A DNA stretch of 64,000 nt from Actinomycetota bacterium (lineage in GTDB: Bacteria > Actinomycetota > Acidimicrobiia > IMCC26256 > VFJJ01). The translations under genes and the position numbers were made by a program. The DNA is taken from contig VFJJ01000069.1 of NCBI GenBank assembly GCA_009886115.1, positions 1 to 64,000 of the forward strand, in the 5' to 3' direction. This document shows, piece by piece, positions 3,632-54,665 of this stretch (positions within the stretch are counted from its first letter, which is position 1; every line of letters starts with the position of its first letter). The notes under the pieces were generated by a model. It saw nothing but the letters and a program-made list of their open reading frames with translations. It did no database searches and had not been told where the DNA came from.

Positions 3632-5067
<1,436 letters not shown>

Positions 5068-5071
<4 letters not shown>

Positions 5072-6594: not shown

Positions 6595-6603
6595 GGATCG
6601 GCC

Positions 6604-11722: not shown

Positions 11723-14056
11723 TCAGAGCGCGATGTCGTGGGGTCGAACGGGGGTGCGGGGCAGCTCCCGACCGGTGGCGTTGCGGATGGCCGCCACGAC
11801 CGCGGGCGTGGAGGAGATCGTGGGCGACTCGCCAGCGCCCTTGGCCCCGAACGGCGCGCCGGGCTCGGGAACCTCCACCAGCTGAGCCACGTTCACCGGA
11901 GGCATGTCGAGCGCGGTGGGTATCAGGTAGTCGGTGAAGCTGGGGTTGCGGACCTTCCCGGCCGTGAGGAGGATCTCCTCCATCACCGCCAAGCCGATGC
12001 CCTGCGCCGTACCCCCTTCCACCTGACCCAAGAGCTGCAACGGATTCAGGACCTTCCCCACGTCCATCGAGGTGGTGATCTCGACCACCCGTACCAGGCC
12101 CAGCTCGACGTCGACGTCGACGACGGCCCGATGGGCGGCGACGGCGAACGAGACGTGGGCGTTGCCCTGGCCGTTCTCGTCGAGCCGGAACGTAGGCGCA
12201 TGGTGATGCTCCTCGACGGCGGAGAAGGCAACACCGGGTGCGGCGTCGGCCACGTCGAGGTCGATCACGGGCTTCGCCGAGTGGCGGGACACGATGCGGC
12301 GGTCGACGATGTCGAGATCGTCGACCGACACCCCGAACGCTGCTCCCACATGGCTCAGGAGCTTCTGGCGCACCGTTCGACAGGCCAGCTCGATGGCCCC
12401 GCCGCTCATCCAGGTCTGGCGTGACGCCGAGGTGGAGCCGGCCGATCCGATGTGGGTGTCGGCCGGCGCCAAGATCACGTCGTCGACGCCGAGCACCGTG
12501 CGGGCGATCTGCTGAGCCAACGTCACGAATCCCTGACCCACCTCGGCGCAGGCCGACTTCACGGTGGCGACACCGTCGAGCAGGTGGCACGAGGCGGTCG
12601 AGAAGTCGTCGAAGCCCTCCGAGAACATGAGGTTCTTCCAGCCCAGCGCGAAACCCACGCCCCGCTTCACGCCAGCGGCGTCGGCGGTGCGGCCCGCCCC
12701 GCCCGGAAGCGCCATCATCGGCGAATCGACGGGTTCGGCCAGCACGGGCATCGGCGCCTCAGCGCACGATCGGATGACCTCCTCAACCGGCAGGGCGCCC
12801 GTGACGATCTGGCCGGTGATGCAGCTGTCGCCCGTCTGCATCGCGTTGAGCAGTCGCAGCTCGATCGGGTCGATGCCGAGCGTCGTCGCCAGCTTGTCCA
12901 TCTGGGCTTCGTGACCGAAGCAGGTCTGCACCGCTCCGAAACCCCGCATCGCTCCGCAGGGCAGGTTGTTGGTGCGAGCAGCCAAGCCGAGCAGGTCGAC
13001 AGCGGGAACCTTGTAGGGCCCGGTGGAGAAGCACGTGGCGTTGGCCAGCACCGCAGACGACGTGGAGGCGTAGGCCCCGCCGTCGAACACGAAACGCCCT
13101 TCCACCTTGACGATACGGCCATCGCGCGTTGCATGGTGGCGGTACCACATCCGGGCCGGATGGCGGTGGACGTGGCCGAAGAACGACTCCTCGCGGCTGT
13201 AGACCATCTTGACCGGGCGACCGGTCTGCAGCGCGAGCAGGCAGATGTGGATCTGGAGCGAGCAGTCCTCACGAGCGCCGAACGCCCCGCCGACACCGGC
13301 CAGATGCAGTCGCACCTTGGCCTCGGGCAGCGCGAGCGATGCCGCGACCTGAGCCTGGTCGGCATGGAGCCATTGGGTGGAGATCCACAGGTCGATGCCG
13401 CCGTCGTCGTCGGGGACGGCCAGCCCCGATTCGGTGCCCAGCGGCGCCTGGTCCTGCATCCCCACCTCGTAGGTGCCCTCGACGACCACGTCACCGGAGA
13501 CGGACATGTCGCCCCGGCGAATCACCAAGCGACGAAAGAGGTTTCCGTCGGGGTGAATCGGCGGGGTGCCTTCGGCGATGGCGATCTCGGGATCGACCAG
13601 CGGGGTGAGGATCTCGTAGTCGACGACGATGGCCTCCATCGCCCGGCGGGCTGTGTCGGGATGGTCGGCGGCCACCGCAGCGATCGGTTCACCGTGGAAC
13701 CGCACGACATCGTGAGCGAAGACCGGCTGATCGGCGTGCTCGAGCCCGAACATCTTGTTCCCCGGGACGTCGTCGTAGGTGACGACCGCCCGCACCCCGG
13801 GGATCTGCCACGCTCCCGAGAGGTCGATCGAACGGATGCGGGCACTGGGATGCGGCGAGCGCACCGTGGCGCCCCACAGCATTCCCTCGGCCCACAGGTC
13901 AGACGAGAACGCGAACCGCCCCTGCACCTTGGGCGTGCCGTCGGGTCTGCGCACGCTCTCGCCGATGACACCGCGACCGGACGCAGAGACGACCGACGGA
14001 TCGGTGACGATCGAGAGACCCGTGCCACTGTTGACCACCGCGCCCACTCCTGTCAT
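11723..14056 (-). CDS. pucD: Xanthine dehydrogenase molybdopterin-binding subunit (PucD-like)
   Basis: RSPHPSA, GGAFGARED, GAMRGFG, SAGSTSASRQT, GAKGAGE; ATG 14056 overlaps stop of 2Fe-2S gene. Confidence 0.85.
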   Translation of the reverse strand: MTGVGAVVNSGTGLSIVTDPSVVSASGRGVIGESVRRPDGTPKVQGRFAFSSDLWAEGMLWGATVRSPHPSARIRSIDLSGAWQIPGVRAVVTYDDVPGNKMFGLEHADQPVFAHDVVRFHGEPIAAVAADHPDTARRAMEAIVVDYEILTPLVDPEIAIAEGTPPIHPDGNLFRRLVIRRGDMSVSGDVVVEGTYEVGMQDQAPLGTESGLAVPDDDGGIDLWISTQWLHADQAQVAASLALPEAKVRLHLAGVGGAFGAREDCSLQIHICLLALQTGRPVKMVYSREESFFGHVHRHPARMWYRHHATRDGRIVKVEGRFVFDGGAYASTSSAVLANATCFSTGPYKVPAVDLLGLAARTNNLPCGAMRGFGAVQTCFGHEAQMDKLATTLGIDPIELRLLNAMQTGDSCITGQIVTGALPVEEVIRSCAEAPMPVLAEPVDSPMMALPGGAGRTADAAGVKRGVGFALGWKNLMFSEGFDDFSTASCHLLDGVATVKSACAEVGQGFVTLAQQIARTVLGVDDVILAPADTHIGSAGSTSASRQTWMSGGAIELACRTVRQKLLSHVGAAFGVSVDDLDIVDRRIVSRHSAKPVIDLDVADAAPGVAFSAVEEHHHAPTFRLDENGQGNAHVSFAVAAHRAVVDVDVELGLVRVVEITTSMDVGKVLNPLQLLGQVEGGTAQGIGLAVMEEILLTAGKVRNPSFTDYLIPTALDMPPVNVAQLVEVPEPGAPFGAKGAGESPTISSTPAVVAAIRNATGRELPRTPVRPHDIAL

Positions 14057-14562
14057 CGGGCTTGCCCCCCGACCTGGCGAAGCCGCACGGTCGTCCACAC
14101 CGCTTCCATGATGCGGCCGTATCCCGTGCAGCGACAGAGGTTCCCGGAGATGGCCTCGCGCACCTCGAGGTCGGTTGGAAGGGGCACGCGGTCGAGCAGG
14201 TCGTGCACCGCCATGATCAGGCCCGGGGTGCAGAAGCCGCACTGGACCGCGCCCTCGGTGAGGAACGCCTCCTGCACGTCGGACAAGACCGCATCGGAGC
14301 CGTCGATCGCGCCGGCTATCCCCTCCACGGTCACGATGTCGCGTCCGACCGCCGACGCCGCCAGCACCAGGCACGCGCACACCAGGCTGCCGTCGACGAG
14401 TACCGAGCAGGAACCGCACTCGCCCTGCTCGCAGGCGTTCTTGGCGCCGGGGAGATCGAGCCGCTCCCGGAGCACCCAGAGCAGGCTCTCGCCGAGCCAC
14501 CCGTCGCTCACCTCACGATCGCGCCCGTTCACCCGTAACGTGTAGGCGCAGTACTCACTCAC
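14053..14562 (-). CDS. pucE: Xanthine dehydrogenase (2Fe-2S) subunit (PucE-like)
   Basis: CEQGECGSC, QCGFCTPG, NLCRCTGY; GGAGGA before GTG 14562; alternative in-frame start 14625. Confidence 0.88.
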   Translation of the reverse strand: MSEYCAYTLRVNGRDREVSDGWLGESLLWVLRERLDLPGAKNACEQGECGSCSVLVDGSLVCACLVLAASAVGRDIVTVEGIAGAIDGSDAVLSDVQEAFLTEGAVQCGFCTPGLIMAVHDLLDRVPLPTDLEVREAISGNLCRCTGYGRIMEAVWTTVRLRQVGGQAR

Positions 14563-14625
14563 GCTCCTCCACTCCTGGCCCTCCGGACCGGGCCGTTCGG
14601 GCCCCCGCTCGCTGCGCTCGCTCAC
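14563..14625 (-). repeat. Small 'SERSER'-type intergenic element (63 bp) at the pucC/pucE junction
   Basis: Starts GTGAGCGAGCGCAGCGAGCG on the pucC stop, in frame with pucE, ends at a second GTGAGTGAG. Confidence 0.5.
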
Positions 14626-15503
14626 GTTCCGACCACCTGGGGGGAGAGCGCTCGCAGCAGCGCTCGGCGGGCACACACGCTGACGGCGTGGCGACGGTAG
14701 ACGGCGGACGAGCGGTGGTCGTCAATGGGACGCGACGCTCCGGCGACCATGCGACCGAACTCCTCGGCGAGCGTCTCGGGATCACCGTCGCTCGAGATCC
14801 CGAGGGGATCGAACGCCAACCGCTCGGCGATCCAGCGCTCGGCCTCGCGAGCTCGCAGCGGGGCGGGTCCCACCGAGCCCAGGCCCACGGCCACCGTCGC
14901 GGCGTCGAGGTCGACCACCAACGCCACCGAAGCAACCGCGATCACCATGGCGTTGCGGGTACCCACCTTGAGGAACTCCTGCGGTCCCCGGCGCACAGGC
15001 AGTCGAGCGCCGAGGATGATCTCGTGGGGCTCACGGGCCGTGCGCTTCACCCCCACGATGAACTCGTCCCAGGGCAGCTCCCGCTGAGCCCCGCCGGCAG
15101 CGCCGAGCACCACCGTCGCGTCGAGCGCCGCCAACACCGGCAGGGTGTCGCCCGCGGGCGAGGCCGTTCCCAGATTGCCTCCGAGGGTGCCGGCGTTGCG
15201 GATCTGCGGACCGCCGACCGTGCGGGCGGCCTGGGCCAGGGCCGGGAAAGACTCCGCCAGCTCACCGATTTCCATCTCGGTGTAGGTGAGCCCCGACCGT
15301 ACCAGGACGCTCCGACCGTCGGCTGAGCGCTCCCAGCCCCGGAGCTCGGGCACCCGATCGAGCGACACCACCGCAGTAGGGCGGCGATGGCCGTAGTTCA
15401 CCTCGACCATGAGATCGGTGCCCCCCATGAGCAGATGGGCATCGGGCTCGGCAGCCAAGGCGGCAAACGCCTCGTCGAGGGATCGGGGAACGGCGACGGT
15501 CAC
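14622..15503 (-). CDS. pucC: Xanthine dehydrogenase FAD-binding subunit (PucC-like)
   Basis: MGGTDLMV, QIRNAGTLGGN, SPAGD, KVGTRNAMVI, PIDDHRSSAVYR. Confidence 0.88.
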   Translation of the reverse strand: MTVAVPRSLDEAFAALAAEPDAHLLMGGTDLMVEVNYGHRRPTAVVSLDRVPELRGWERSADGRSVLVRSGLTYTEMEIGELAESFPALAQAARTVGGPQIRNAGTLGGNLGTASPAGDTLPVLAALDATVVLGAAGGAQRELPWDEFIVGVKRTAREPHEIILGARLPVRRGPQEFLKVGTRNAMVIAVASVALVVDLDAATVAVGLGSVGPAPLRAREAERWIAERLAFDPLGISSDGDPETLAEEFGRMVAGASRPIDDHRSSAVYRRHAVSVCARRALLRALSPQVVGT

Positions 15504-24493: not shown

Positions 24494-24585
24494 GTCCACG
24501 GCGGGGCCTCCGGTTTCTTCGCGCTTTTTCACCGGGGCTGCGCAAAATCGCGGAGAAACGCCCGCCGCCGCCACTGCAGCTCAGG
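24482..24585. terminator. Long imperfect inverted repeat between convergent genes (bidirectional terminator or REP-like)
   Basis: CCTGAGCTG/CAGCTCAGG outer arms; GTTTCTTCGCG/CGCGGAGAAAC inner arms; T and A runs. Confidence 0.55.
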
Positions 24586-27113: not shown

Positions 27114-28546
27114 TCCTGCGTTGCCACGGCTGCGGTTGGACGGCCCCGGCCGATCGACCGCTCACGTTCCGGTGCGCCAACGCCGGCCGGGCCGACGACA
27201 CCGACCACGTGTTGACGATCGTCGACACCGGTGACGGGCGCCCGGCTGCGGCCCCGGCTGCGGCAACGGGAGCAGGCGGCGGCGCAATCGACGGCACCGC
27301 AGACGACGGAACCGTGGATGGCCGCTCCGGGAATCCGTTCGTCCGATACCGGGATCGCCTGTATTCCCATGATGTCGCGCTGCGTCACGGGCTCAGCGAC
27401 GACCGGTATCTCGAGCTCGTCATCGAGCTCGACGAGGCCGTGGCTCGCGTCGACGGACGGGGGTTTCGCGTCACGCCGTTCGGGCCGCAGCCTGCCTTGT
27501 CGGAACGACTCGGCGTTGCCGTTCTCGTGAAGGATGAGACCGGCGCGGTCTCGGGATCGCACAAGGCCCGCCATCTCATGGGAGTCATGATCCATCTCCT
27601 GGTGGCCGAGGCCATCGCGGGCGGCACGCAAGGCCGTGGCCCGGCTCGCGTCCGTGACCGGCTGGCGATCGCCTCGTGCGGCAACGCCGCCTTGGGTGCG
27701 GCAGTGGTGGCCCGGGCCGCCGACTGGCCCCTCGAGGTCTTCGTGCCACCCTGGGCCCCACCGACGGTCGTCGAGCGGCTCCACGAGCTCGGGGCTCACG
27801 TGACGCGGTGCCCCCGACGCGACGACGATCCGCCCGGCGATCCCTGCGTGCACCGCTTCCGTGAAGCGGTGGCCGCCGGGTCGGTGCCATTCAGCTGCCA
27901 GGGCCCCGACAACGGCCTCACGATCGACGGCGGTCGGACGCTGGGCTGGGAGCTGGCCGAGCAACGGGTGCATCAACCCTTCGGGCGCATCCTCGTGCAG
28001 GTCGGCGGCGGGGCTTTGGCGTCGAGCGTCGCTCAGGGGCTGCGGGTCGACGGCCCTCTCCCGATCGTGCATCCGGTGCAGACCGAGGGATGCGCTCCGC
28101 TCGCCCGCGCGTGGGACCGGGCCGGCCCGATCCTCGAACGAGTCGCTGGCGTGAGCCGGAGTGGCATCGACGGGGAGGGCCGCCCGGTCGAGCTCGACCG
28201 GGCGGCCGTTGTGGCGCTCTCCCACCGGCGCTCGGAGCTGATGTGGCCGTGGGAGACCGAGCCCCAGTCGGCCGCGCACGGGATCCTCGACGACGAGACC
28301 TACGACTGGTGGGAGATCGTGGCCGCGACGCACGAGAGTGGCGGTCGCCCCGTCGTGGCCCACGAAGCCGACATCATCGAGGCGCTCCGGCTGGCCCGCA
28401 CGCTCACGACCGTCCCGGTCGACGCCACCGGCAGCGCCGGGCTGGCCGGTCTGCTCAGGCTGCTCGCCGACGACCCGGGCGTCCGCAACGACGAGCTGCC
28501 CGTCGCCGTGGTCTTCACCGGCCTCGACCGCACCCTCAGCCGCTGA
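27110..28546 (+). CDS. Threonine synthase-like PLP-dependent enzyme with N-terminal Cys motif
   Basis: CHGC...[40 protein letters not shown] coupling. Confidence 0.8.
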
Positions 28547-30847: not shown

Positions 30848-31366
30848 TCAGGCGTCGCGGTTGGCGGCCTGGGTGACGGGGGGCAGGCACGACCATGGGA
30901 ACTCGATCCATCGATCGGTGTGTCGCCAGACGTAATCGCAGTTCACGATGGACTGCGGCTTCTCGTAGAGCACTGCGGTGCGGAGCTCGGCGACCTCGCC
31001 GCTGCAGTAGTCGACGACGAGCTTGAGGGTGTGCCCGGTGTCGGCCACGTCGTCGACGACGAGCACCCTCGTGCCCCGGATGTCGACCATGTTGAGCACC
31101 GGGGGGAGCATCACCGGGAAGTCGAGCCGCTGGTTGACCCCCGTGTAGAACTCGACGTTCATCACGTGCACGTTCTTGACCGCCAAGGCGTAGGCGATGG
31201 CCCCGCCCAGCAGCATCCCGCCACGCGCGATCGTGAGCACGATGTCGGGGGCGTATCCGGAGTCGTGCACCTCGGTCGCGAGCTGGCGCACCGCGGTTCC
31301 GAACTCCGTGTAGCCGAGCACCTCACGCGGCGGCGGCCCTGCCCCCGTTTCGACGATTTCGCTCAC
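30848..31366 (-). CDS. Type I phosphoribosyltransferase (purine PRT-like)
   Basis: IARGG, VLVVDDVADTGHTL, WIEFPW. Confidence 0.88.
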   Translation of the reverse strand: MSEIVETGAGPPPREVLGYTEFGTAVRQLATEVHDSGYAPDIVLTIARGGMLLGGAIAYALAVKNVHVMNVEFYTGVNQRLDFPVMLPPVLNMVDIRGTRVLVVDDVADTGHTLKLVVDYCSGEVAELRTAVLYEKPQSIVNCDYVWRHTDRWIEFPWSCLPPVTQAANRDA

Positions 31367-31527: not shown

Positions 31528-34206
31528 GTGACCACACAGTTCTCCGTCAACGGGCGTGATGTCGCGGTGCGCGACGACCACCCCCACCTGCTCTCGGCGC
31601 TGCGCGACGAGCTCGACATCACCTCACCGAAGGACGGCTGCTCGCCGACGGGGCAGTGCGGCTGCTGCACGGTGATCATCGACGGCAAGGCCCAGGTCTC
31701 GTGTCAGGTGTCGCTGGCGAAGGTCGCCGGGCGCAGCGTCAGCACGCTCGAGGGCTTCGACACCGACGAACGCACCCGGTTGGCATCGGCCTTCGCCGCG
31801 TGTGGAGCGCTCCAGTGCGGGTTCTGCACCCCGGGGATCCTGGTGCGCACCAAGGCGCTCCTCGACAAGAAGGGCGCCGGGCTCACCCGCGACGACGCCG
31901 CACGCCATCTCGGTGGGCACCTGTGCCGCTGCACCGGGTACGTGAAGATCCTCGACGCCGTCGAGATGCTCGCCGCCTCCCACGACGCACGTCACGACCA
32001 GAGCGACCAGGGCGGCCCCGGCCCCGGTCTCGGGGGCGACACGGTCGACGGGGGCACGGCGCTCGAGCTGCCGAGGGGCATCGGGCAACGGGGCATCCGC
32101 TACGAGGCAGCCGAGCTGGCCCTTGGTGATCGCGACTACGTCGACGACATGCGGGTGCCCGGGATGCTCCATGGAGCGCTGCGCCTCACCGACCATGCCC
32201 GTGCCGACGTCATCGGCATCGACACCGCAGCCGCTCGTGCCGCCGCTGGTGTCGTGGCCGTGTTCAGCGCAGCCGACATCCCCGGCGAGCTGCGCGTGGG
32301 CATCATCCACAAGGACTGGCCGATCATGATCCCCGAGGGCGGCCGTACGTCGTATCTCGGCGACGTGCTGGCGATCGTGGTGGCCGACACCCGAGAACAG
32401 GCCCGGGCCGCGGCGGCGCTGATCTCGGTCGAGTACCGGGTGCTGAGCCCCATCACCGATCCGGTCGCCGCGGTGGCCGAAGGCGCCGAGAGCGCCGTCT
32501 GGGGCCTCGAGGGCAACATGCTGTCGCACTCCGCCTACCAGCGCGGCGACGTCGATGCCGCGCTGGCCGCATCGGCCCACACGGTGCACGAGACCTTCGA
32601 GACGGCCCGGATCGAGCACGCGTTCCTCGAGCCGGAATCGACGCTCGTGGTCCCCGAGATCGGCGCCGATGGCGAGCTTCGCCTGCAGGTGTACTCCGGC
32701 GGTCAGGGCGTGTGGGACGACCGCAACCAGATCGCGTCGGTGCTCGGCATCGACACCGGGCGGGTGACCGTCACCCTGGTGAGCAACGGCGGGGCCTTCG
32801 GCGGCAAGGAGGACATGGCGAACCAGGCCCAGACGGCGCTCGCCGCCTGGCTCCTGCAGCGTCCCGTGAAGTGCACGCTGTCACGTGAGGAATCACTCCT
32901 GATGCACCCCAAGCGTCACCCCATCCAGATGGAGTACTGGGCGGGGTGCGACGCCGACGGGAAGCTCACCGCGCTCAAGGCCCGCATGGTCGGCGACTCC
33001 GGCGCCTACGCCAGCGTGGGCATGAAGGTTCTCGAACGTGCGGCCGGCCACGCCAGCGGCCCCTACGTGGTACCGACGATCGATGTCGACGCCGTGGCGG
33101 CTCGAACCAACAACCCGGTCTGCGGAGCGTTCCGCGGGTTCGGCGCCAACCAGGCCCAGTTCGCCATGGAGGGAGTCATCGACCGCCTCGCCGAGATGGT
33201 GGGGATCTCGGGTTGGGAGATGCGCTGGCGCAATGCGATCGTCCCCGGCGTCGTGTGGGGTCCCGGGCAGATCATGGACGACGGCTGCGCCGGGGTTCGG
33301 GCCTGTCTCGAAGCGGTGCGACCCGCATACGACGCTGCGGTGGCCGCCGGCAAGGCGGTCGGGCTGGGGATCGGGCTCAAGAACTCCGGGCTGGGCAACG
33401 GTTTCAAGGAGCTGGCCCGGGCCGTCGTGCACTTTCGTGAGACGCCCGACGCGAACGGACGCGACGTCGAGGTGCGCCATTGCTGGACCGAGATGGGCCA
33501 GGGGGTGCACACCGTCGCCATGCAGGTCGCCGCCGAGGAGCTGGCGATCGCGCCCGAGCGCATCGAGGTGATCGTCGACACGACCCGCGAGCTCGGGGCC
33601 GGTCAGACCACGGGCTCACGGGGAACCCTCATGGGCGCCGGCTCCGTCGCCGACGCCTGCAAGACCGCCATCGCCGACGGATGCCGGACCGGCGTCGACT
33701 ACGAGGGCGAGTGGCGTGTCGACTGGACCAACGCGCTCTACGAAGGGCTCGAGAACCCGGTGATCCATTCGGCGTTCGGGTATGCCGCGCAGCTCGTCGT
33801 CATCGACCGCGAGACCGGCAAGCTCGAGAAGGTTGTGGCCGTGCACGACGTGGGCCGGGCCATGAACCCCACGCTGTGCGAAGGACAGGTCGAGGGCTCG
33901 GTGCACATGGGGCTCGGCTACGCGTTCACCGAGGAGTTCCCCGCCGACACCGACGGCCGTCCGCTCAACATGACCTTGCGCTCATTGGCGATCATCAGGC
34001 CCAAGGACATGCCGGAGGTCGAGACCATCCTCATCGAGGTACCCCAGCCCCGGGCGCCGTACGGCATCAAGGGGGTGGGCGAGATCGGACTCGTCCCGAC
34101 GGCCGGTGCCTGCGCGGCCGCGTTGCGCGACCTCGACGGGATCTGGCGCACCCGGTTGCCGATGGGCCTTCCCGGCAAGGGCGGCGGCGCTCCATCAGAC
34201 GACTGA
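31528..34206 (+). CDS. Fused (2Fe-2S)2-molybdopterin hydroxylase (Se-dependent xanthine dehydrogenase/XdhD-like)
   Basis: CSPTGQCGCC, QCGFCTPG, CRCTGY, EHAFLEPE, GGAFGGKED, GAFRGFG, GQTTGSR, GIKGVGE; no FAD domain. Confidence 0.85.
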   Translation: MTTQFSVNGRDVAVRDDHPHLLSALRDELDITSPKDGCSPTGQCGCCTVIIDGKAQVSCQVSLAKVAGRSVSTLEGFDTDERTRLASAFAACGALQCGFCTPGILVRTKALLDKKGAGLTRDDAARHLGGHLCRCTGYVKILDAVEMLAASHDARHDQSDQGGPGPGLGGDTVDGGTALELPRGIGQRGIRYEAAELALGDRDYVDDMRVPGMLHGALRLTDHARADVIGIDTAAARAAAGVVAVFSAADIPGELRVGIIHKDWPIMIPEGGRTSYLGDVLAIVVADTREQARAAAALISVEYRVLSPITDPVAAVAEGAESAVWGLEGNMLSHSAYQRGDVDAALAASAHTVHETFETARIEHAFLEPESTLVVPEIGADGELRLQVYSGGQGVWDDRNQIASVLGIDTGRVTVTLVSNGGAFGGKEDMANQAQTALAAWLLQRPVKCTLSREESLLMHPKRHPIQMEYWAGCDADGKLTALKARMVGDSGAYASVGMKVLERAAGHASGPYVVPTIDVDAVAARTNNPVCGAFRGFGANQAQFAMEGVIDRLAEMVGISGWEMRWRNAIVPGVVWGPGQIMDDGCAGVRACLEAVRPAYDAAVAAGKAVGLGIGLKNSGLGNGFKELARAVVHFRETPDANGRDVEVRHCWTEMGQGVHTVAMQVAAEELAIAPERIEVIVDTTRELGAGQTTGSRGTLMGAGSVADACKTAIADGCRTGVDYEGEWRVDWTNALYEGLENPVIHSAFGYAAQLVVIDRETGKLEKVVAVHDVGRAMNPTLCEGQVEGSVHMGLGYAFTEEFPADTDGRPLNMTLRSLAIIRPKDMPEVETILIEVPQPRAPYGIKGVGEIGLVPTAGACAAALRDLDGIWRTRLPMGLPGKGGGAPSDD

Positions 34207-34245
34207 CGACCGACAACCGACAACCGACGACTGACAGCCGACAGG
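34204..34245. repeat. Imperfect heptamer tandem repeat (consensus CGACAAC) x6
   Basis: TGACGAC CGACAAC CGACAAC CGACGAC TGACAGC CGACAGG, starting on the stop codon. Confidence 0.75.
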
Positions 34246-34304
34246 TGACCGACCAGGCGGCCGGCCAGACCGGCGAGCGACACACGACCACGGAAGGCCA
34301 TCGG

Positions 34305-35384
34305 ATGGGCTCCACGACCCCGGGGATGGTGTGCGGCCACCATCATCTGTACTCGGCCCTGGCTCGGGGGATGCCCGCGCCGCCGATGACCCCGACGAAC
34401 TTTCGCGAGGTTCTCGAACAGGTCTGGTGGCGGCTCGACTGTGCCCTCGACCTCGAGATGATCCGGTGGTCGGCCACCCTCGGCGCCGTCGAGGCGTTGG
34501 CGGCGGGGTGTACGGCGATCGTCGACCACCACGAGTCGCCCCATGCCATCGAAGGCTCGCTGTCGGTGATCGCCGAAGCCTGCGCGGAGGTCGGCGTCCG
34601 GGTGTCGTGCGCGTACGGGGTGACCGACCGGCACGGGCCCGACGGGGCGCGACGGGGCCTCGCCGAGAACGAGCGGTACCTCCGCTCGGGCGGCCGGGGT
34701 CTCGTGGGGGTGCACGCCGCGTTCACCTGCTCCGACGACACGCTCAGGGCCGCAACCGGGCTGGCAGCCGATCTCGGTGTGGGCGTGCACATCCACGTGG
34801 CCGAGGGCATCGACGATCGCGACGCCGGGAAACGCTTGGCGCCCTTGGCTGCGAGCGACTGGCTGCTGGTGCATTGCGTGCATCTCGACGAGCCGCTGCC
34901 GGGGACGATCGCCCACAACCCCCGCTCCAACATGAACAACGCGGTCGGGTACGCGCGGCCCACCCGCTTCGCGGCGCCCCCGTTCGCGGCACCGGGCACG
35001 GGCACGGGCACGGGCACGGGCGGCGGCGGGAACCCGGTCGTGCTCGGTACCGACGGCATCGGCGCCGACATGCTCGACGAGTTCCGTCTGGCCTACGTGA
35101 AGCTGCGCGAGAGCGACATCACCGCGACCCCGCAGACGCCATGGAACTGGCTGGCCAACGGCTGGGACCTCATGCCGGAGGCCCACAGCGACGACACCGT
35201 CACCTGGTCGTACGAGCACGCCGACGATCCCTGGTGCCTGGCCTTCACGACCGGTGTGCACCCGATCGAGGTCACGGTCGCCGGCGAGGCAGTCTGGCGT
35301 GACGGCGCCCCGACCCGGGTCGACATCGTCGAGGTGCGCGCCAAGGCCGCCGAGCAGGCGGCGCGGCTGTTCGCCCGGCTCTGA
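34305..35384 (+). CDS. SsnA-like amidohydrolase (compact)
   Basis: PGMVCGHHHLYSALARGM, LEQVWWRLD, DHHESP, GVHAAFTCS, HIHVAE, HNPRSNMNNAVG, GTDG; alternative start 34245. Confidence 0.82.
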   Translation: MGSTTPGMVCGHHHLYSALARGMPAPPMTPTNFREVLEQVWWRLDCALDLEMIRWSATLGAVEALAAGCTAIVDHHESPHAIEGSLSVIAEACAEVGVRVSCAYGVTDRHGPDGARRGLAENERYLRSGGRGLVGVHAAFTCSDDTLRAATGLAADLGVGVHIHVAEGIDDRDAGKRLAPLAASDWLLVHCVHLDEPLPGTIAHNPRSNMNNAVGYARPTRFAAPPFAAPGTGTGTGTGGGGNPVVLGTDGIGADMLDEFRLAYVKLRESDITATPQTPWNWLANGWDLMPEAHSDDTVTWSYEHADDPWCLAFTTGVHPIEVTVAGEAVWRDGAPTRVDIVEVRAKAAEQAARLFARL

Positions 35385-35455
35385 CAGCCTGAAACTTTCC
35401 GCACCCCTCCCCGTCCCGCAGTCGAAACCCACCTCCGACCCAGGAGACACCTCCC

Positions 35456-36475
35456 ATGGCCACCCCGGTCGCCCTGTACCTGCAAGACGCCCATCCCATC
35501 CGAGAGGCCATGGGCTACGCCGCGTACGCGGAGGCCCGGGGCTTCCACGCGGTGTGGCAAGCCGACAGTCGACTGGTGCGGGAGGCGTGCGTGCCCATGG
35601 CGGCGTTCGCGGCGACGACCGAGCGCATCCGCATCGGATCGGGCGTCGTCGACTGCTGGACCCGCAACCCGGCCCGTCTGGCCGCCACGTTCTCGACGCT
35701 CGACGACCTCGCGCCGGGCCGCATCATCCTCGGGATCGGCGCCTGGTGGGACCCGCTCGCGGCGGCCGTCGGCGTGAGCCGGGCCCGCCCGCTCACCGTG
35801 ATGCGCGAGATCGTCACGACCGTGCGGGCCTTGCTGGCCAACGAGACCGTCACGTTCCACGGCGAGTACGTCCACCTCGACGGGGTCGAGCTCGACTACG
35901 TGCACCAGGAGCGCCGACCCAAGGACGTCCCCATCTACGTGGGCGCCACGGGCGACAAGATGATGGAGCTCACCGGAGAGATCGCCGACGGCGTCGTGCT
36001 CAACTATCTCGTCTCGCCGGGCTACAACCGCAAGGCCATGGAGCTGCTGGCGACGGGAGCGGCGCGCGCCGGGCGGACCGTCGACGACATCGACCGGCCG
36101 CAGCTCGTCGTCTGCTCGATGGCCACCGGCGACTCCGATGCCGAGCGGAAGGCGGCGCTCGATGGTTCACGGGAGCTCGTCACCCAGTACCTGGGCCAGC
36201 AGCCCCACATCATGAAGGCCTCTGGCGTTCCCACCGAGCTGCTCGACGAGATCGGCAAGGTCCTCACGTGGCCGGCGACGCACGAGCAGGTGATCGCGGC
36301 GTCGAAGCTCGTCCCCGACGACGTCGTCCAGATGATCACCGCATCGGGGACGGCCGACGAGTGCCGGGCCAAGGTGGCCGAGTACGTGCGCGACGGCTGT
36401 ACCTGTCCGATCCTGTATCCCCTGGGACCCGATGTCGAGGGGATGATCGACGCCTTCGCCGACTGGACGGCGTGA
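35456..36475 (+). CDS. LLM-class oxidoreductase, Mer-like (possibly F420-dependent)
   Basis: [51 protein letters not shown]. Confidence 0.85.
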
Positions 36476-36484
36476 GGTTCGGTC

Positions 36485-36886
36485 GTGGCGCATCGCTATC
36501 TCGAGGCCATTGCGGGCCTGGCCTCGGCGCTCGGGGCTCAGGTCGTCACGGTTGACGAGATCCGCGCCGGTGACATTCCCCTCGTATGGGAGGGTCACAC
36601 GATCGGCGGGTTCCGGCCCCCCGATCTTCACGGCGCGCTCGAGCGGTTGATGGGCGACGTCGAGCGCGACTTCGGGATGACGCTGCCGTCGCTCAGCCGG
36701 GAGGACAAGCAGATGGCCGTCAGGATGCTCGAGGAGCGGGGCGCATTCACCCTTCGCCGGTCGGTCGAGGAGGTGGCCGATGCCCTGGGCGTCAGCCGCT
36801 TCACGGTCTACAACTACCTCAACCGCGACGACATCAACCGCGACGACATCAACCGCGACGAGCTCAGCCGAGGGGTGCCGAGGTGA
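36485..36886 (+). CDS. HTH transcriptional regulator (YheO-like C-terminal HTH)
   Basis: LSREDKQMAVRMLEERGAF, VEEVADALGVSRFTVYNYLN; 15-bp repeat (NRDDI) at 36821-36865. Confidence 0.85.
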   Translation: MAHRYLEAIAGLASALGAQVVTVDEIRAGDIPLVWEGHTIGGFRPPDLHGALERLMGDVERDFGMTLPSLSREDKQMAVRMLEERGAFTLRRSVEEVADALGVSRFTVYNYLNRDDINRDDINRDELSRGVPR

Positions 36887-37143
36887 GCGCAGCCACGACA
36901 CCGGCGGAGCTGGTGGCCGAGTTCACCGTCGAGCCCTTCGTCGAGGGCCATCCCGGGCCCCATGTGCTCGCCGCGCTCGAAGCGGCCAGAACCGCCGGGC
37001 TGCACGTCGAGGTCGGGCCGTTCGGAACCGAGGTGCAGGGCGACGCCACCCGTGTGAGTGACGCCATCGCCCAGGTGATAGCCAGTGCCATGGCCCAGGG
37101 AGCGACCCGGGTCTCGATCCAGGTGCAGCGGAGGTCGACGTGA
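36883..37143 (+). CDS. Small thiamine-binding/YkoF-like protein
   Basis: AEFTVEPF, VEVGPFGTEVQG, GATRVSIQV; coupled on both sides. Confidence 0.72.
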   Translation: MSAATTPAELVAEFTVEPFVEGHPGPHVLAALEAARTAGLHVEVGPFGTEVQGDATRVSDAIAQVIASAMAQGATRVSIQVQRRST

Positions 37144-37505
37144 AGCAGTTCCGGTTCGTGATGGGTTCCGACCGCTATGACGACTGCGCGGCCTTCTACG
37201 GCCAGCTCCTCGAGCTCCCGGTCTTCGACGAATGGGCCGACCCGACCCGGGGCACGATCTGGCAGTTCAGCGACGGGCTCATCGAGGTCGCCGAACCTCC
37301 GGCCGGGGAGCGAGCCGCGGCCGTCACCGGGGTCTTCCTCGCCATCGAGGTCGACGACGCGCAGGTCTGGCACGATCGCCTCACCGGTCGGGGTGCGGTG
37401 ATCTCGAGCCCGCTGACGACCAAGCCGTGGGGTCATCACAGCTTCGGCGTCGTCGACCCCCACGGTCTCGAGCTGGTGCTCTTCGAGGTCGTCGGTCAGC
37501 ACTGA
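37140..37505 (+). CDS. VOC/glyoxalase family protein
   Basis: FYGQLL, LAIEVDD, KPWGHHSFGVVDPHG. Confidence 0.85.
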   Translation: MKQFRFVMGSDRYDDCAAFYGQLLELPVFDEWADPTRGTIWQFSDGLIEVAEPPAGERAAAVTGVFLAIEVDDAQVWHDRLTGRGAVISSPLTTKPWGHHSFGVVDPHGLELVLFEVVGQH

Positions 37506-37523
37506 CCGGTACGCTCGAAGTCG

Positions 37524-38768
37524 ATGGCCGACACTGCACACCCCGAACTGCGGATCGACGGCGAGCGTCTGCTCGCCCGCATCCAGGCGCTGCACGAGGT
37601 CTCGCCCATCGATGGCGGCGGCAACTGCCGGCTGGCGCTCACCGACGACGACCTGGCCGGACGCGACCTCGTCGTCACGATGATGCGCGACCTGGGGCTC
37701 ACCGTGTCGATCGACGTCGTCGGCAACGTCGTCGCGGTGCGCGCCGGGCACACCCACACGGCGCCGGTCATGTGCGGCTCCCACATCGACACCGTGCGCA
37801 CCGGAGGCCGCTACGACGGCAACTACGGAGTGCTGGCCGGGCTCGAGATCATCGAGACGCTCGACACCGCGGGTGTGATCACCAAGCGCCCCTTGGCCGT
37901 CGGCTTCTTCACCGACGAGGAGGGCGCCCGCTTCGCCCCCGACATGCTGGGCTCACTCGTGTACGTGGGCGGCCTGGCCGTCGAGGAGGCGCTCGACACC
38001 GTGGCCATCGACGGGGCCCGCTTGGGTGACGAGCTGAGCCGCATCGGGTACGCCGGATCGACGCCGTGCCCGGGTGTCGTGCCGCACGCGTTCGTCGAGC
38101 TGCACGTCGAGCAGGGCCCCGTGCTCGAGCTCGAAGGTGTCACGATCGGCGCAGTCGAGTCGGTGCAGGGCATCTCGTGGACCGAGTTGACGATCGTCGG
38201 CCAGTCGAACCACGCCGGCACGACGCCGATGCGTCTCCGACACGACGCCGGATACGCGGCTGCGAGCGTCGCCGTGTTCGTGCGCGGCCTCGCCGGCGAG
38301 CTCGGCGGCAACCAGGTGGCAACGGTCGGTGCGTGCGACCTGCACCCGAACCTCGTGAACGTCGTCGCCGGCCGCGCCGTGCTCACCGTCGACCTGCGCA
38401 ACACCTCCGAGGACGGGCTGCGCGAAGCCGAGCGCCGGCTCTTCGGGTTCCTCGACGAGCTCGCCGTCACCGAGGGCGTCACGATCACCAAGCGGACGTT
38501 GGCCCGGTTCGAGCCGGTGATCTTCGACCCCGGGGTCGTCGACCTCGTCGAGCAGACCGCCCTCGCCCAGGGCCACACCGTGCGGCGGATGCCGTCGGGG
38601 GCCGGCCACGACGCGCAGATGCTGGCCCGGGTGTGCCCGACCGCGATGGTGTTCGTGCCGTCGGCGAAGGGACTTTCGCACAACCCGGCCGAGCACACCG
38701 AGCCGGCCGATCTGGAGGCCGGGGCCAACGTCCTGCTCCACGTCATGCTGGCGCTGGCCGCGGAATGA
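37524..38768 (+). CDS. M20 Zn-dependent hydrolase (N-carbamoyl-L-amino acid / beta-ureidopropionase / allantoate amidohydrolase family)
   Basis: GSHIDT, GRYDGNYG, DEEGARF, ELHVEQGP, NHAGTTPM, SGAGHDAQ, SHNPAE. Confidence 0.92.
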   Translation: MADTAHPELRIDGERLLARIQALHEVSPIDGGGNCRLALTDDDLAGRDLVVTMMRDLGLTVSIDVVGNVVAVRAGHTHTAPVMCGSHIDTVRTGGRYDGNYGVLAGLEIIETLDTAGVITKRPLAVGFFTDEEGARFAPDMLGSLVYVGGLAVEEALDTVAIDGARLGDELSRIGYAGSTPCPGVVPHAFVELHVEQGPVLELEGVTIGAVESVQGISWTELTIVGQSNHAGTTPMRLRHDAGYAAASVAVFVRGLAGELGGNQVATVGACDLHPNLVNVVAGRAVLTVDLRNTSEDGLREAERRLFGFLDELAVTEGVTITKRTLARFEPVIFDPGVVDLVEQTALAQGHTVRRMPSGAGHDAQMLARVCPTAMVFVPSAKGLSHNPAEHTEPADLEAGANVLLHVMLALAAE

Positions 38769-38781
38769 TCGAGGTGACGCA

Positions 38782-39717
38782 GTGAACCGTTCCGTCGTGG
38801 TGGGCGCGGCCCAGCTCGGACCGATCGCCCGATCGGAGTCTCGCGCCGACGTCGTCGATCGCCTCATCGCACTCCTGAGCGAGGCCCACCGGGCCGGCTG
38901 CGAGCTCGTGGTGTACCCCGAGCTGGCCCTCACGACGTTCTTCCCCCGTTGGTACACCGAAGACAGCGACGAGATCGACGGCTACTTCGAACGGTCGATG
39001 CCCGGCCCCGAGACGTCGAGGCTCTTCGACGAGGCCGCGCGCCTGGGGATCGGGTTCTGCCTCGGGTATGGCGAGCTCACCCCGACCGGCGAGCACTTCA
39101 ACACCCAGATCCTCGTCGAGCGCGACGGCTCGGTGGTCGGGCGCTATCGCAAGGTGCACCTCCCCGGTCACGAGGAGCACGAGCCCTGGCGGAGGTTCCA
39201 GCATCTCGAGCGCCGTTACTTCGATCCCGGGCCCGACGGATTCGGTGTCTGGAAGGCGTTCGGCGGCGTGGTGGGCATGGCGATCTGCAACGACAGGCGC
39301 TGGCCCGAGACCTACCGGGTGCTCGGGCTCCAGGGCTGCGAGATGGCCCTCATCGGGTACAACACGCCGATCCACTACGCCCCCGACCCGTCGCAGGATT
39401 CCTTGGCGGGCTTCCACAACAACCTGGTGATGGCCGCCGGCGCGTACCAGAACGGGATGTTCGTCGTCGGGGTGGCCAAGGGCGGCGTCGAGGAAGGCGT
39501 CGACGGGCTGTGCCAGTCGCAGATCATCGCCCCGTCGGGGCAGGTGCTGGCCCAGTGCATCACCAACGGCGACGAGCTCGCCGCGGCTCGCTGCGACCTC
39601 GATTGGTGCGCGCGCTACAAGAAGACGCTCTTCGACTTCGACCGCTACCGCAGGCCCGAGATGTACCGGCTCATCGTCGACCAGGTCGGTGTCGTCGTTC
39701 CGCCGCACGCCCGGTGA
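38782..39717 (+). CDS. N-carbamoyl-D-amino-acid hydrolase (nitrilase superfamily)
   Basis: YPELALTTFFPRW, YRKVHLPGH, HLERRYF, ICNDRRWPE, GYNTP. Confidence 0.9.
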   Translation: MNRSVVVGAAQLGPIARSESRADVVDRLIALLSEAHRAGCELVVYPELALTTFFPRWYTEDSDEIDGYFERSMPGPETSRLFDEAARLGIGFCLGYGELTPTGEHFNTQILVERDGSVVGRYRKVHLPGHEEHEPWRRFQHLERRYFDPGPDGFGVWKAFGGVVGMAICNDRRWPETYRVLGLQGCEMALIGYNTPIHYAPDPSQDSLAGFHNNLVMAAGAYQNGMFVVGVAKGGVEEGVDGLCQSQIIAPSGQVLAQCITNGDELAAARCDLDWCARYKKTLFDFDRYRRPEMYRLIVDQVGVVVPPHAR

Positions 39718-40907
39718 GCGCACCCTACGTCGTCGCTACTGCCCCGTGGGTGGGCCCCGACGAGCTGCGCGAGCAGGCCCGGAGCGTGCTACCCCAACCC
39801 ATCTTCGACTACGTCGATTCCGGCGCGGATTCCGAGGCGACCGTCGCCGCGAACCGATCGGCGTTCGCCGCGGTACGGCCTCGACCCCGCGTGCTCACCG
39901 ACGTGACCGAGCGGGCGACGACCACCTCAGTGCTGGGACGGGAGGTCGCGCTGCCCGTCCTCCTGGCGCCCACCGGGCAGCACCGGCTCTACCACCCCGA
40001 CGGTGAGATCGGCGTCGCCCGGGCCGCGGCGTCGATCGGGACGGTGGCCGCCATGAGCACCGCGGGCTCGACGGGCATCGTCGACGTGGCGGCGGCCGTG
40101 CCCGAGGCCCGGTTGTGGTTCCAGTTCTACATGCCCGCCGATCGGGGGGCGGCCGAGGTGATGCTGGCGGCGGCCGAGCGAGCCGACGTCGAGGCGCTGT
40201 GTCTCACGGTCGACACGCCGCTGCCGGGCTTTCGCGAGCGAGACGTGCGTAACCGCATGGCCTTCCCACCGGCCGTCGACCCGAGCGATCCGGTGTGGGC
40301 CGACCGTCCGGAGTGGACGGCGGCCTATCTGGCCGGGCCGCCGCCCGCCCAGCCGAACACGGCCCACCTGGCCGCGGTGACGCAGGTGATGAACCCGGCC
40401 CTGTCGTGGGCCGACGTCGAGTGGCTCCGCGCTCGATGGCCGAAGCCCTTGGTGCTGAAAGCGATCACCCGAGGTGACGACGCCCGGCGAGCGGTCGAGA
40501 TCGGCATCGACGCCATCATCGTGTCGAACCACGGGGGCCGTCAGCTCGACACGATGCCCGGCACGCTCGAGTGCCTGCCCGAGGTCGTGGCCGCCGTTCG
40601 AGCCGCCGAGGCCGGCGGGTTCGGCGGGTTCGGCGGGCCGGTCGGCGCCCGGGCCCCGGTCGAGGTGTATCTCGACGGAGGGGTGCGGCGCGGCCTCGAC
40701 GTCGTGAAGGCCGTCGCCCTCGGTGCACGGGCGGTCTTCATCGGCCGTCCCTACGTCTGGGCGCTGGCCGTCGGCGGCAGCGCCGGCGTCGCGACACTGT
40801 TGGCGTCGATGCGCGGCGAAGTCGACCGGAGCCTCGCCCTGCTCGGCTGCGCGACCGTCGACGCGCTCGACGCGTCGTTCTTCAGCGTGCCGGCTGCCTG
40901 GAGCTGA
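39714..40907 (+). CDS. FMN-dependent alpha-hydroxy acid oxidase/dehydrogenase
   Basis: FDYVDSGA, LWFQFY, LTVD, SNHGGRQLD, DGGVRRG, GRPY. Confidence 0.92.
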   Translation: MSAPYVVATAPWVGPDELREQARSVLPQPIFDYVDSGADSEATVAANRSAFAAVRPRPRVLTDVTERATTTSVLGREVALPVLLAPTGQHRLYHPDGEIGVARAAASIGTVAAMSTAGSTGIVDVAAAVPEARLWFQFYMPADRGAAEVMLAAAERADVEALCLTVDTPLPGFRERDVRNRMAFPPAVDPSDPVWADRPEWTAAYLAGPPPAQPNTAHLAAVTQVMNPALSWADVEWLRARWPKPLVLKAITRGDDARRAVEIGIDAIIVSNHGGRQLDTMPGTLECLPEVVAAVRAAEAGGFGGFGGPVGARAPVEVYLDGGVRRGLDVVKAVALGARAVFIGRPYVWALAVGGSAGVATLLASMRGEVDRSLALLGCATVDALDASFFSVPAAWS

Positions 40908-42250: not shown

Positions 42251-42754
42251 ATGAGCAACGACCAGCCGATGGGCCACGGCAAGAACCAGCGCGCCCAGAT
42301 CAAGATGTCGGACGACGAGGTCACGGCGTTCCTCGCCGGGCGGCGGTCGATGACGTGGAGCACGATCAACGCCGACGGGACGATCCATTCCGTGGCCATG
42401 TGGTACGGCTTCCTCGACGGCAAGATCGCCATCGAGACCAAGACCAAGTCGCAGAAGGTCAAGAACCTGTTGCGCGATCCCCGCACCACGGTGTTGGTCG
42501 AGGACGGCGAGTACTACGACGAGCTTCGAGGGGTGACGATCAGTGGCACCATCGAGTTCGTCGAAGACCAGGATCGTCAATGGGCCCTTGGTGTTTCGGT
42601 GTTCGAGCGCTACACCGGTGCGTACAACGACGAGATGGCTCCGTTCGTCGAGGCAATGCTGCGCAACCGCTCGATCATCATGCTGAACCCCACCAAGACC
42701 GTCACGTGGGACCACCGCAAGCTCGGGCTCCCCTCGATGCGTCCACCGTCGTGA
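42251..42754 (+). CDS. Pyridoxamine 5'-phosphate oxidase-like (PPOX class, possibly F420-binding) protein
   Basis: STINADGTIHSVAMWY, SQKVKNLLRDPR, LRGV, TWDHRK. Confidence 0.85.
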   Translation: MSNDQPMGHGKNQRAQIKMSDDEVTAFLAGRRSMTWSTINADGTIHSVAMWYGFLDGKIAIETKTKSQKVKNLLRDPRTTVLVEDGEYYDELRGVTISGTIEFVEDQDRQWALGVSVFERYTGAYNDEMAPFVEAMLRNRSIIMLNPTKTVTWDHRKLGLPSMRPPS

Positions 42755-54647: not shown

Positions 54648-54665
54648 CCCGACGCAGGATGTGAC

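Follow-up and report, generated by a model that had tools for sequence, protein, structure and literature searches.

A conserved Acidimicrobiia operon, probably a variant of reductive urate degradation, with a Mer-like luciferase-family protein in the place of YgfK

Nine co-directional genes at 31528-40907

We analysed a 64,000-nucleotide stretch of contig VFJJ01000069.1 from an Acidimicrobiia-type actinobacterium (about 70% G+C); this whole stretch is called the window, and all positions are counted in it. The subject is an operon at 31528-40907 that probably encodes a rewired form of reductive urate degradation, the route through 2,8-dioxopurine ('yanthine'). Genes were located by third-position GC (GC3) bias and then by Pfam and NCBIfam domain searches, which showed nine co-directional + strand genes filling the interval (Table 1). 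The gaps between them are, in 5'-3' order, 98, 71, 9, -4, -4, 18, 13 and -4 bases, and the reading frames carry the GC3 bias typical of real genes. An earlier interpretation made from the letters (the sequence-only reading) had described a tightly spaced operon of genes with these domains, and both the Pfam and NCBIfam calls and the gap lengths bear this out.

Table 1. Positions of the operon genes and of other features of the window
Feature	Position	Strand	Match or remark
Fused 2Fe-2S/molybdenum hydroxylase, without FAD domain	31528..34206 (alternative start 31483)	+	Pfam Fer2_2, Ald_Xan_dh_C, MoCoBD_1 and MoCoBD_2 in one polypeptide
Short SsnA-like amidohydrolase, 359 residues	34305..35384 (alternative GTG start 34245)	+	Amidohydro_1; best NCBIfam family SsnA
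Mer-like luciferase-like (LLM) oxidoreductase	35456..36475	+	Bac_luciferase PF00296, 221.2 bits (cut-off 27.9)
HTH_22 DNA-binding protein	36485..36886	+	PF13309, 76.3 bits
YkoF/Thiamine_BP-like protein, 86 residues	36883..37143	+	PF01910, 32.3 bits (cut-off 24.9); start overlaps HTH gene by 4 bases
VOC/glyoxalase-fold protein	37140..37505	+	PF00903, 32.9 bits
M20 carbamoylase (hydantoinase/carbamoylase amidase family)	37524..38768	+	Peptidase_M20; TIGR01879, 370 bits (cut-off 204); NF006771, 399.6 bits (cut-off 399)
N-carbamoyl-D-amino-acid hydrolase (D-carbamoylase, DCase), nitrilase superfamily	38782..39717	+	CN_hydrolase; DCase 8i99, 399.7 bits, E 8.7e-119, residues 1-304
FMN-dependent alpha-hydroxy-acid oxidase/dehydrogenase	39714..40907	+	FMN_dh PF01070, 404.8 bits
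Purine-type phosphoribosyltransferase	30848..31366	-	PF00156, 80.8 bits; divergent, upstream of operon
Canonical three-subunit xanthine dehydrogenase (XDH; Mo, 2Fe-2S, FAD)	11726..15503	-	16 kb upstream of operon
PALP1, atypical fold-type-II pyridoxal-phosphate (PLP) enzyme	25560-27113	+	PF00291
PALP2, atypical fold-type-II PLP enzyme	27110 or 27314-28546	+	PF00291
F420-dependent PPOX protein	42251-42754		TIGR03618, above cut-off

The molybdenum enzyme, the SsnA-like amidohydrolase and the luciferase-like protein

The fused molybdenum enzyme is a candidate urate/2,8-dioxopurine oxidoreductase (2,8-dioxopurine dehydrogenase, DOPDH) of the XdhAC-like kind. Its best family is TIGR03311 ('selenium-dependent xanthine dehydrogenase'), at 807.8 bits just short of the 830.45 cut-off, with pucD next at 434, and it is 24% identical to E. 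coli XdhD over the full length. It shares the Fe-S plus molybdenum cofactor architecture without FAD with XdhAC of C. sporogenes, which was found experimentally to be a 2,8-dioxopurine dehydrogenase that reduces urate to 2,8-dioxopurine (preprint 10.1101/2025.04.24.650524). In an alignment of 19 molybdenum subunits, Asp occupies the column of E. coli XdhD Glu606 in 10 of 10 SsnA-adjacent enzymes compared with 1 of 7 of the three-subunit XDH type; Glu606 was proposed, from a model, to orient urate (Li et al., PMC12507026). This column is weak evidence for the assignment, as the region aligns poorly at low identity and the role of the residue comes from that model.

The second gene encodes a candidate ring-opening hydrolase. 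SsnA (NF005540) is again the best family, with 233 bits against a cut-off of 444 and over profile positions 58-347 of 444 only; TIGR03314 gives 215 bits, under its 455.5 cut-off, and identity to E. coli SsnA is 33.5%. The possibility that the gene is a broken pseudogene was considered and rejected, as the short form is conserved: among the matches listed, the 120 best relatives have 332-359 residues and are 70-86% identical (the 100% match being the window's own entry). Moreover, 38 aligned SsnA-like sequences show no variation in the HxH metal motif or the C-terminal Asp region, the predicted structure is confident (pLDDT 88.7, pTM 0.89), and the model superposes with a TM score of 0.79 on isocytosine and 8-oxoguanine-type deaminases, enzymes that hydrolyse ring amidine carbons. 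Among representatives of 50%-identity clusters, the relatives that come next (40-55% identity) have the full length, about 400-455 residues. SsnA is the top family for 12 of 13 such more distant representatives, with 144-460 bits and one above cut-off, and we therefore take the short form to be a derived branch of the SsnA lineage.

Within the SsnA-like gene, an in-frame tandem repeat of the hexanucleotide GGCACG (34988-35021, 5.5 copies) specifies a run rich in Gly and Thr, which belongs to a 19-residue loop insertion, modelled at pLDDT <50, that is absent in most relatives and 12-13 residues long in the two closest.

The third gene encodes the LLM protein, a candidate F420H2-dependent 2,8-dioxopurine reductase. 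The top 16 families listed for it in NCBIfam are all coenzyme F420 families, including Mer (NF002619, 169 bits, cut-off 276) and TIGR03841 (124 bits, cut-off 213.65), and the first FMN family follows at 44.8 bits. Comparison with solved structures gave a similar picture: Mer (8qq8) matches over the full length with 136.5 bits, no FMN enzyme scores above 36.5 bits, and F420 enzymes make up the 11 best PDB matches, bar one named only 'Luciferase family protein'. Judged by these scores, the LLM is nearer to F420 than to FMN enzymes. Mer, its best-matching characterised enzyme, has the same TIM-barrel LLM fold and would share hydride transfer to a carbon bonded to ring nitrogens; the LLM differs in falling below the equivalog cut-off of 276, in its non-methanogen host and in its purine-related context in place of C1 metabolism. 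An F420-dependent PPOX protein above the TIGR03618 cut-off is also encoded in the window (42251-42754), and related marine Acidimicrobiia have been reported with F420 biosynthesis (PMC7771536); both lend indirect support to F420 use.

The LLM and a YgfK-like protein alternate beside the SsnA-like gene

A genome scan with the SsnA-like protein, in a collection holding a single genome for each species, matched at least 600 stretches, of which at least 492 were confirmed. We compared 80 of these loci, all from Acidimicrobiia-type metagenome-assembled genomes. Neighbours were scored by tblastn with the window's proteins and with representatives of recurrent neighbour clusters, and all locus counts given here rest on tblastn; 35 of the 80 loci have full 10 kb flanks. 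The order molybdenum enzyme-SsnA-like-LLM, often followed by the M20 and CN-hydrolase genes, recurs in relatives, and the repetition of this core argues that the operon is no chance arrangement. The closest locus among those compared (L001) has the window's gene order without the FMN oxidase, at 74-96% protein identity. Of the 60 loci with enough upstream sequence, 38 have a molybdenum enzyme gene within the 500 bases that precede the SsnA-like gene. With full flanks, the molybdenum enzyme and an LLM of either type were each found in 32 of 35 loci and the D-carbamoylase in 27.

The sequence-only reading had proposed that the LLM takes the place of YgfK beside the SsnA-like gene, and had suggested a test of whether the two exclude each other there. 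The LLM gene stands directly downstream of the SsnA-like gene on the same strand in 54 of the 80 loci and on the opposite strand in one; in three it occurs only elsewhere in the locus. A second LLM type, whose best family (TIGR03619) is also an F420 family, lies directly upstream in eight. Altogether an LLM-type gene is present somewhere in 66 loci, with both types in L023 and L056. In four others a YgfK-like protein of 583 residues is encoded beside or near the SsnA-like gene; it covers the N-terminal half of TIGR03315 (434 bits over the first 410 positions) and shares 40% identity with YgfK of E. coli. None of the four has an LLM in the sequence available, the mutual exclusion that was to be tested, and the placing of the LLM in the slot of YgfK is supported. 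The remaining 10 loci have neither protein, five of them with <1100 bases on one side. The LLM is also more conserved than the SsnA-like protein across loci (72-96% versus 62-84% identity).

The distribution of the two reductases was mapped on a quick IQ-TREE maximum-likelihood tree of 81 SsnA-like proteins with SH-aLRT support only. YgfK-linked rows are scattered on this tree, one of them nested beside an LLM-linked row with 98% support, and the well-supported branches force at least two changes. The scatter indicates repeated non-orthologous replacement of the reductase partner inside a single amidohydrolase family, and no other argument for the LLM doing the job of YgfK is as strong. Substitution of the LLM for YgfK is well supported by synteny; the cofactor and the activities are predictions.

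Further genes of the pathway occur in some relatives and strengthen the assignment. With E. coli YgeX as tblastn query, a YgeX-family diaminopropionate ammonia-lyase (NF006058, 310.7 bits, cut-off 276) was found adjoining the core in 16 loci of the 80 and in 10 of the 35 with full flanks. HyuA-like genes occur in five of the 80, YgeW- and YqeA-like genes together in one, MocA-like genes in two and Bmp-type ABC transporters in several. An 8-oxoguanine-deaminase-like amidohydrolase (NF006055, 523.5 bits, cut-off 532) follows the LLM or the lyase in 11 of 35 full-flank loci. Loci with this gene include L006, L031, L043 (at L043:13100-14449, for example), L049 and L080; a three-subunit XDH often precedes the cluster in such loci, making up a compact purine-to-pyruvate gene set.

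Some loci stand apart. L060, labelled Bifidobacterium breve, has an SsnA-like protein that falls in an Ilumatobacteraceae-type clade with L012 and L026 and has the same SsnA-LLM pair; its contig is probably mis-binned or mislabelled. In L051, L052 and L079 (Ilumatobacteraceae) the SsnA-like gene occurs without other pathway genes, downstream of a gene for a conserved 102-residue protein of no known family. An L,D-transpeptidase-like gene follows in L052 and L079, and L051 ends 144 bases after the SsnA-like gene.

Two carbamoylases and the genes missing from the window

The operon encodes two hydrolases of ureido-cleaving families. By its profile scores and solved relatives (5thw, 357 bits; N-carbamoyl-beta-alanine amidohydrolase 8c46, 286 bits; L-carbamoylase, 282 bits), the M20 protein belongs with the L-carbamoylase/N-carbamoyl-beta-alanine amidohydrolase (AllC-type) family, apart from YgeY, with which it gives no BLAST match (E. 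coli YgeY); it is a candidate 3-ureido (beta-ureido) hydrolase. The alignment of the CN-hydrolase with 8i99 conserves the stretches PEL, RKxHLPG and AICNDRRW, whose Glu, Lys and Cys we take to be the DCase catalytic triad. It scores 400 bits with alpha-amino-acid D-carbamoylases against only ~60 bits with beta-ureidopropionase, and on this comparison it is a genuine N-carbamoyl-D-amino-acid hydrolase. We regard it as a candidate 2-ureido hydrolase, an assignment in keeping with the D (R) stereochemistry put forward for the ureido-bearing intermediates of the pathway (PMC12990295). The DCase of the industrial hydantoinase process shares the full-length match and the catalytic-site stretches, and differs in that the present enzyme is embedded in a purine-type cluster without an adjacent hydantoinase. 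This context suggests a natural substrate such as D-2,3-diureidopropionate; we know of no natural substrate assigned to D-carbamoylases. The suggestion that two carbamoylases serve the two ureido groups is thus compatible with their families, a true D-carbamoylase and an M20 protein of the L-carbamoylase/beta-alanine-amidohydrolase family.

The window was searched by tblastn with E. coli K-12 proteins for the remaining pathway genes. No match to ygfK, ygeW, ygeX, ygeY, yqeA, yqeB or yqeC was found in the 64 kb, and hyuA gave only an 89-residue N-terminal match to an unrelated Amidohydro_3 protein, in agreement with the earlier statement that homologues of YgfK, YgeW and HyuA are absent. Neither UacX (PF01180) nor YgfK (TIGR03315) has a homologue in the window, and the LLM fills their slot.

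A separate canonical XDH is likely to be the supplier of urate. Its molybdenum subunit scores above cut-off with pucD (TIGR03196, 826.1 bits, cut-off 783.65) and is followed by XdhC-like and XdhB-like subunits. The same XDH type adjoins the core cluster in relatives, with its FAD subunit in 11 of 35 full-flank loci.

A proposed reductive urate pathway

The operon is real and conserved. It most likely encodes a variant of the known reductive urate pathway in actinobacteria of an aerobic lineage, and we consider it probable that this variant is a rewired purine degradation through 2,8-dioxopurine. In this scheme, the canonical XDH would probably make urate (step 1), and the fused molybdenum enzyme would dehydroxylate it at C6 to 2,8-dioxopurine (step 2). 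The LLM would then give a hydride, most likely from F420H2, and dearomatise the ring (step 3), the job of YgfK in E. coli and of UacX in C. difficile. The short SsnA-like amidohydrolase would attack the C4 amidine carbon and open the pyrimidine ring (step 4). Steps 2-4 are proposed on homology plus synteny. The hydantoin ring would next be opened by an enzyme encoded outside the window or, more speculatively, by a second attack of the same amidohydrolase at C4, giving 2,3-diureidopropionate (step 5); the double attack is raised because HyuA is absent from most relatives. In step 6 the D-carbamoylase would remove the 2-ureido group, that of an N-carbamoyl-D-alpha-amino acid, and the M20 enzyme the 3-ureido (beta-ureido) group, leaving 2,3-diaminopropionate; these roles follow from the enzyme families together with the D configuration proposed for the intermediates (PMC12990295). 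Diaminopropionate would finally be converted to pyruvate and ammonia (step 7) by a lyase that is absent from the window and whose position in relatives is occupied by a YgeX homologue.

Several observations weigh against this pathway. The LLM lies below the cut-off of every curated F420 family, so its cofactor is not readable with certainty from sequence, and no F420 biosynthesis gene is present in the 64-kb window. The SsnA-like protein lacks about 55 N-terminal residues and reaches half of the SsnA cut-off. No electron donor is evident for the FAD-less molybdenum enzyme, and the selenium-cofactor genes yqeB and yqeC were found by tblastn in none of the 80 loci, though known DOPDH is selenium-dependent. 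Neither a hydantoinase nor a YgeX homologue is encoded in the window, HyuA-like genes (39-42% identity) occur in only 5 of 80 loci, most relatives having none within 10 kb, and the M20 gene is present in only 16 of 35 full-flank loci. Lastly, five adequately flanked loci have neither an LLM nor a YgfK-like gene.

A bolder version can be put forward: that aerobic environmental Acidimicrobiia (freshwater, marine, sponge-associated and activated-sludge) run an F420-driven form of the 'anaerobic' reductive urate pathway as a main route to purine nitrogen. On this view the LLM took over repeatedly from the Fe-S flavoenzyme YgfK, two hydrolyses at C4 by the truncated SsnA open both rings and make a hydantoinase unnecessary, and D-2,3-diureidopropionate is the natural substrate of the D-carbamoylase. 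Taken as a whole, this version is tentative and rather doubtful.

Alternative explanations

The same chemistry could be directed at a different substrate, such as a pterin (isoxanthopterin, for instance), 8-oxoguanine, a further oxopurine or some other oxidised or modified N-heterocycle. The near-8-oxoguanine-deaminase enzyme found after the core in 11 of 35 full-flank loci would suit this, as would the activity of Mer, the nearest characterised relative of the LLM, on a pterin derivative, and the molybdenum enzyme falls under its TIGR03311 cut-off with only 24% identity to XdhD. However, the product of 8-oxoguanine deaminase is urate, so that the enzyme would supply the proposed pathway and not rival it. 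In 16 loci the YgeX-type lyase implies a C3 diamino product, as expected from purine C4-C5-C6, and YgfK, which replaces the LLM in four loci, is specific for 2,8-dioxopurine among three xanthine isomers (preprint 10.1101/2025.04.24.650524). We therefore think a different substrate unlikely. Pyrimidine or hydantoin catabolism, with the LLM and SsnA-like proteins replacing dihydropyrimidine dehydrogenase and dihydropyrimidinase and the carbamoylases acting as beta-ureidopropionases or hydantoin-process carbamoylases, is in our view very unlikely. D-carbamoylases do classically pair with hydantoinases, and beta-alanine synthases are among the relatives of the M20 protein. Li et al. (PMC12507026) describe SsnA as related to PydB and UacX as a homologue of PydA. 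Yet neither a hydantoinase nor a hydantoin racemase is encoded in the window, and pyrimidine reduction has no use for a molybdenum hydroxylase, yet one adjoins the SsnA-like gene in 38 of 60 informative loci. The higher score of the CN-hydrolase with D-carbamoylases than with beta-ureidopropionase (400 versus ~60 bits) also speaks against pyrimidines, and neighbouring diaminopropionate lyases do not match beta-alanine as an end product.

It could also be argued that the LLM is an accessory, such as a monooxygenase that depends on FMN, or an F420 enzyme whose substrate is a later intermediate, with the ring reductase encoded elsewhere. Its scores under all curated family cut-offs leave room for such a role, and so do the five flanked loci that lack both reductases and the presence of both LLM types in L023 and L056. 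An accessory would hardly be expected, though, to share a slot beside the SsnA-like gene with a YgfK-like protein and never to occur together with it in 80 loci, nor to be conserved above the SsnA-like protein itself; and the similarity to FMN enzymes is far weaker than that to F420 enzymes. An accessory LLM is accordingly, in our estimate, quite improbable, and we retain it as the putative ring reductase of a reductive urate pathway.

Relation to known systems

Elucidation of the reductive urate pathway dates only from 2025. The E. coli/Clostridium cluster comprises xdhD-ygfM (or xdhAC), ygfK (or uacX), ssnA, hyuA, ygeW plus yqeA (or uacY), ygeY and ygeX (PMC12507026; preprint 10.1101/2025.04.24.650524). 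The present operon shares with it the adjacency of a fused Fe-S/Mo hydroxylase, an SsnA-type amidohydrolase and a reductase, with two ureido-cleaving hydrolases after them, and its relatives add YgeX-, HyuA-, YgeW/YqeA- and YgfK-type genes. In contrast to that cluster, the reductase is a Mer-like LLM, with no YgfK or UacX; SsnA is shortened to ~340-360 residues and scores below cut-off; the 2-ureido step would fall to a nitrilase-family D-carbamoylase instead of YgeW/UacY; and the M20 protein is of the AllC/L-carbamoylase subfamily, not YgeY. HyuA, YgeX, YgfM, YqeB and YqeC are missing from the window, and the hosts are environmental Acidimicrobiia, not gut anaerobes. The pathway has been described as restricted to obligate or facultative anaerobes (PMC12990295).

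The sequence-only reading had taken the configuration to be undescribed. This stands only in part: in the literature searched no description was found for Acidimicrobiia, whereas the idea of an F420-dependent LLM in place of YgfK has already been published for Chloroflexota. Li et al. (2025) built a similarity network of SsnA (IPR017700), and in Chloroflexota lacking YgfK/UacX they proposed, from bioinformatics only, that a PF00296 enzyme beside SsnA is a coenzyme-F420-dependent yanthine reductase (PMC12507026). A luciferase-family enzyme beside SsnA in the place of YgfK/UacX is common to both cases. The Chloroflexota case is a one-sentence neighbourhood remark on IPR017700 members in another phylum, and the SsnA-like family described here (215 bits against the TIGR03314 cut-off of 455.5) scores too low to be expected in that set. 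In a literature search that lacked most subscription journals, Li et al. (PMC12507026) was the only paper to combine 'F420' with 'SsnA', and no paper was found linking the pathway with Acidimicrobiia, a truncated SsnA or a D-carbamoylase.

If the proposal is correct, the reductive urate pathway would extend to a large group of environmental actinobacteria (at least 492 stretches with relatives), and an abundant, highly conserved LLM family annotated 'LLM class flavin-dependent oxidoreductase' or 'Mer' would gain its first physiological role. The LLM would be an F420-dependent and possibly oxygen-tolerant substitute for the Fe-S enzyme YgfK, and a natural substrate for D-carbamoylase would be indicated. 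Because LLM and YgfK-like proteins swap places inside a single SsnA family, nature has supplied a clean experiment, and the function of the LLM becomes open to direct test.

Other genes of the operon and of the window

The HTH_22 protein is probably a local regulator and the YkoF-like protein its ligand-binding partner. The HTH_22 gene was found in 10 of 80 loci (4 of 35 with full flanks), in nine of them together with a YkoF-like gene; in L049 the pair is 7.7 kb apart. Among the 80 loci the VOC gene recurs in L001 only. The FMN oxidase, whose best solved relatives are L-lactate oxidase and hydroxyacid oxidase (278-288 bits), had been counted as an alpha-hydroxy acid oxidase member of the operon. 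The gene is present in the window, but tblastn found it in none of the 80 loci, the closest relative L001 and the 35 full-flank loci included. Both the FMN oxidase and the VOC protein are lineage-specific.

Two claims about the PLP enzymes PALP1 and PALP2 were not supported. They had been assigned the YgeX step, and neither matches a diaminopropionate ammonia-lyase family, the matches being weak ones to cysteine synthase and serine dehydratase; in the protein atlas, PALP1 falls only in unannotated PALP clusters. They had also been called co-regulated with the operon, and they form a separate transcription unit behind an oppositely oriented gene. PALP1 is present in 6 of 35 full-flank loci. In L036 and L054 it comes immediately after the SsnA-like gene; in L023, L056 and L067 it immediately precedes the M20 gene and coexists with a true YgeX-type lyase. 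PALP1 is associated with the pathway in some relatives, probably with a function other than that of the lyase. Divergent from PALP1/PALP2, in the window as in L001, is a homoserine-kinase-like gene (24584-25462, - strand; thrB, 165.7 bits, cut-off 168.25), a hint that the substrate of the two enzymes may be an amino acid that is phosphorylated or carries a beta/gamma substituent.

At the borders of the operon, the best NCBIfam match of the divergent phosphoribosyltransferase is xanthine phosphoribosyltransferase (55 bits, cut-off 138), with relatives in 6 of 35 full-flank loci, and a phosphotransferase gene converges on the 3' end. At gathering scores, Rfam detected neither a riboswitch nor any other family in the window, and at E <= 1 no match close to the operon was credible. 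A promoter and terminator scan was uninformative (no promoter-like sites, and three terminator-like sites versus 1.7 expected).

Further away, a row of + strand genes (53616-56759 and 56759-57754) encodes a GntG-family PLP aldolase (363.7 bits, cut-off 230), an acetoacetate-CoA ligase (823 bits) and a second LLM of the window, with TIGR03619 as best family below cut-off; these genes appear unconnected with the operon. A second molybdoenzyme cluster (3632-10747, + strand) comprises a rhodanese/metallo-beta-lactamase protein, a fused 4Fe-4S/NrfD protein, a molybdopterin oxidoreductase and a NarJ-like chaperone. The best matches of the oxidoreductase, all sub-threshold, are to thiosulfate and DMSO-family reductases, and by its gene content the cluster resembles a polysulfide/thiosulfate/tetrathionate-type reductase set.

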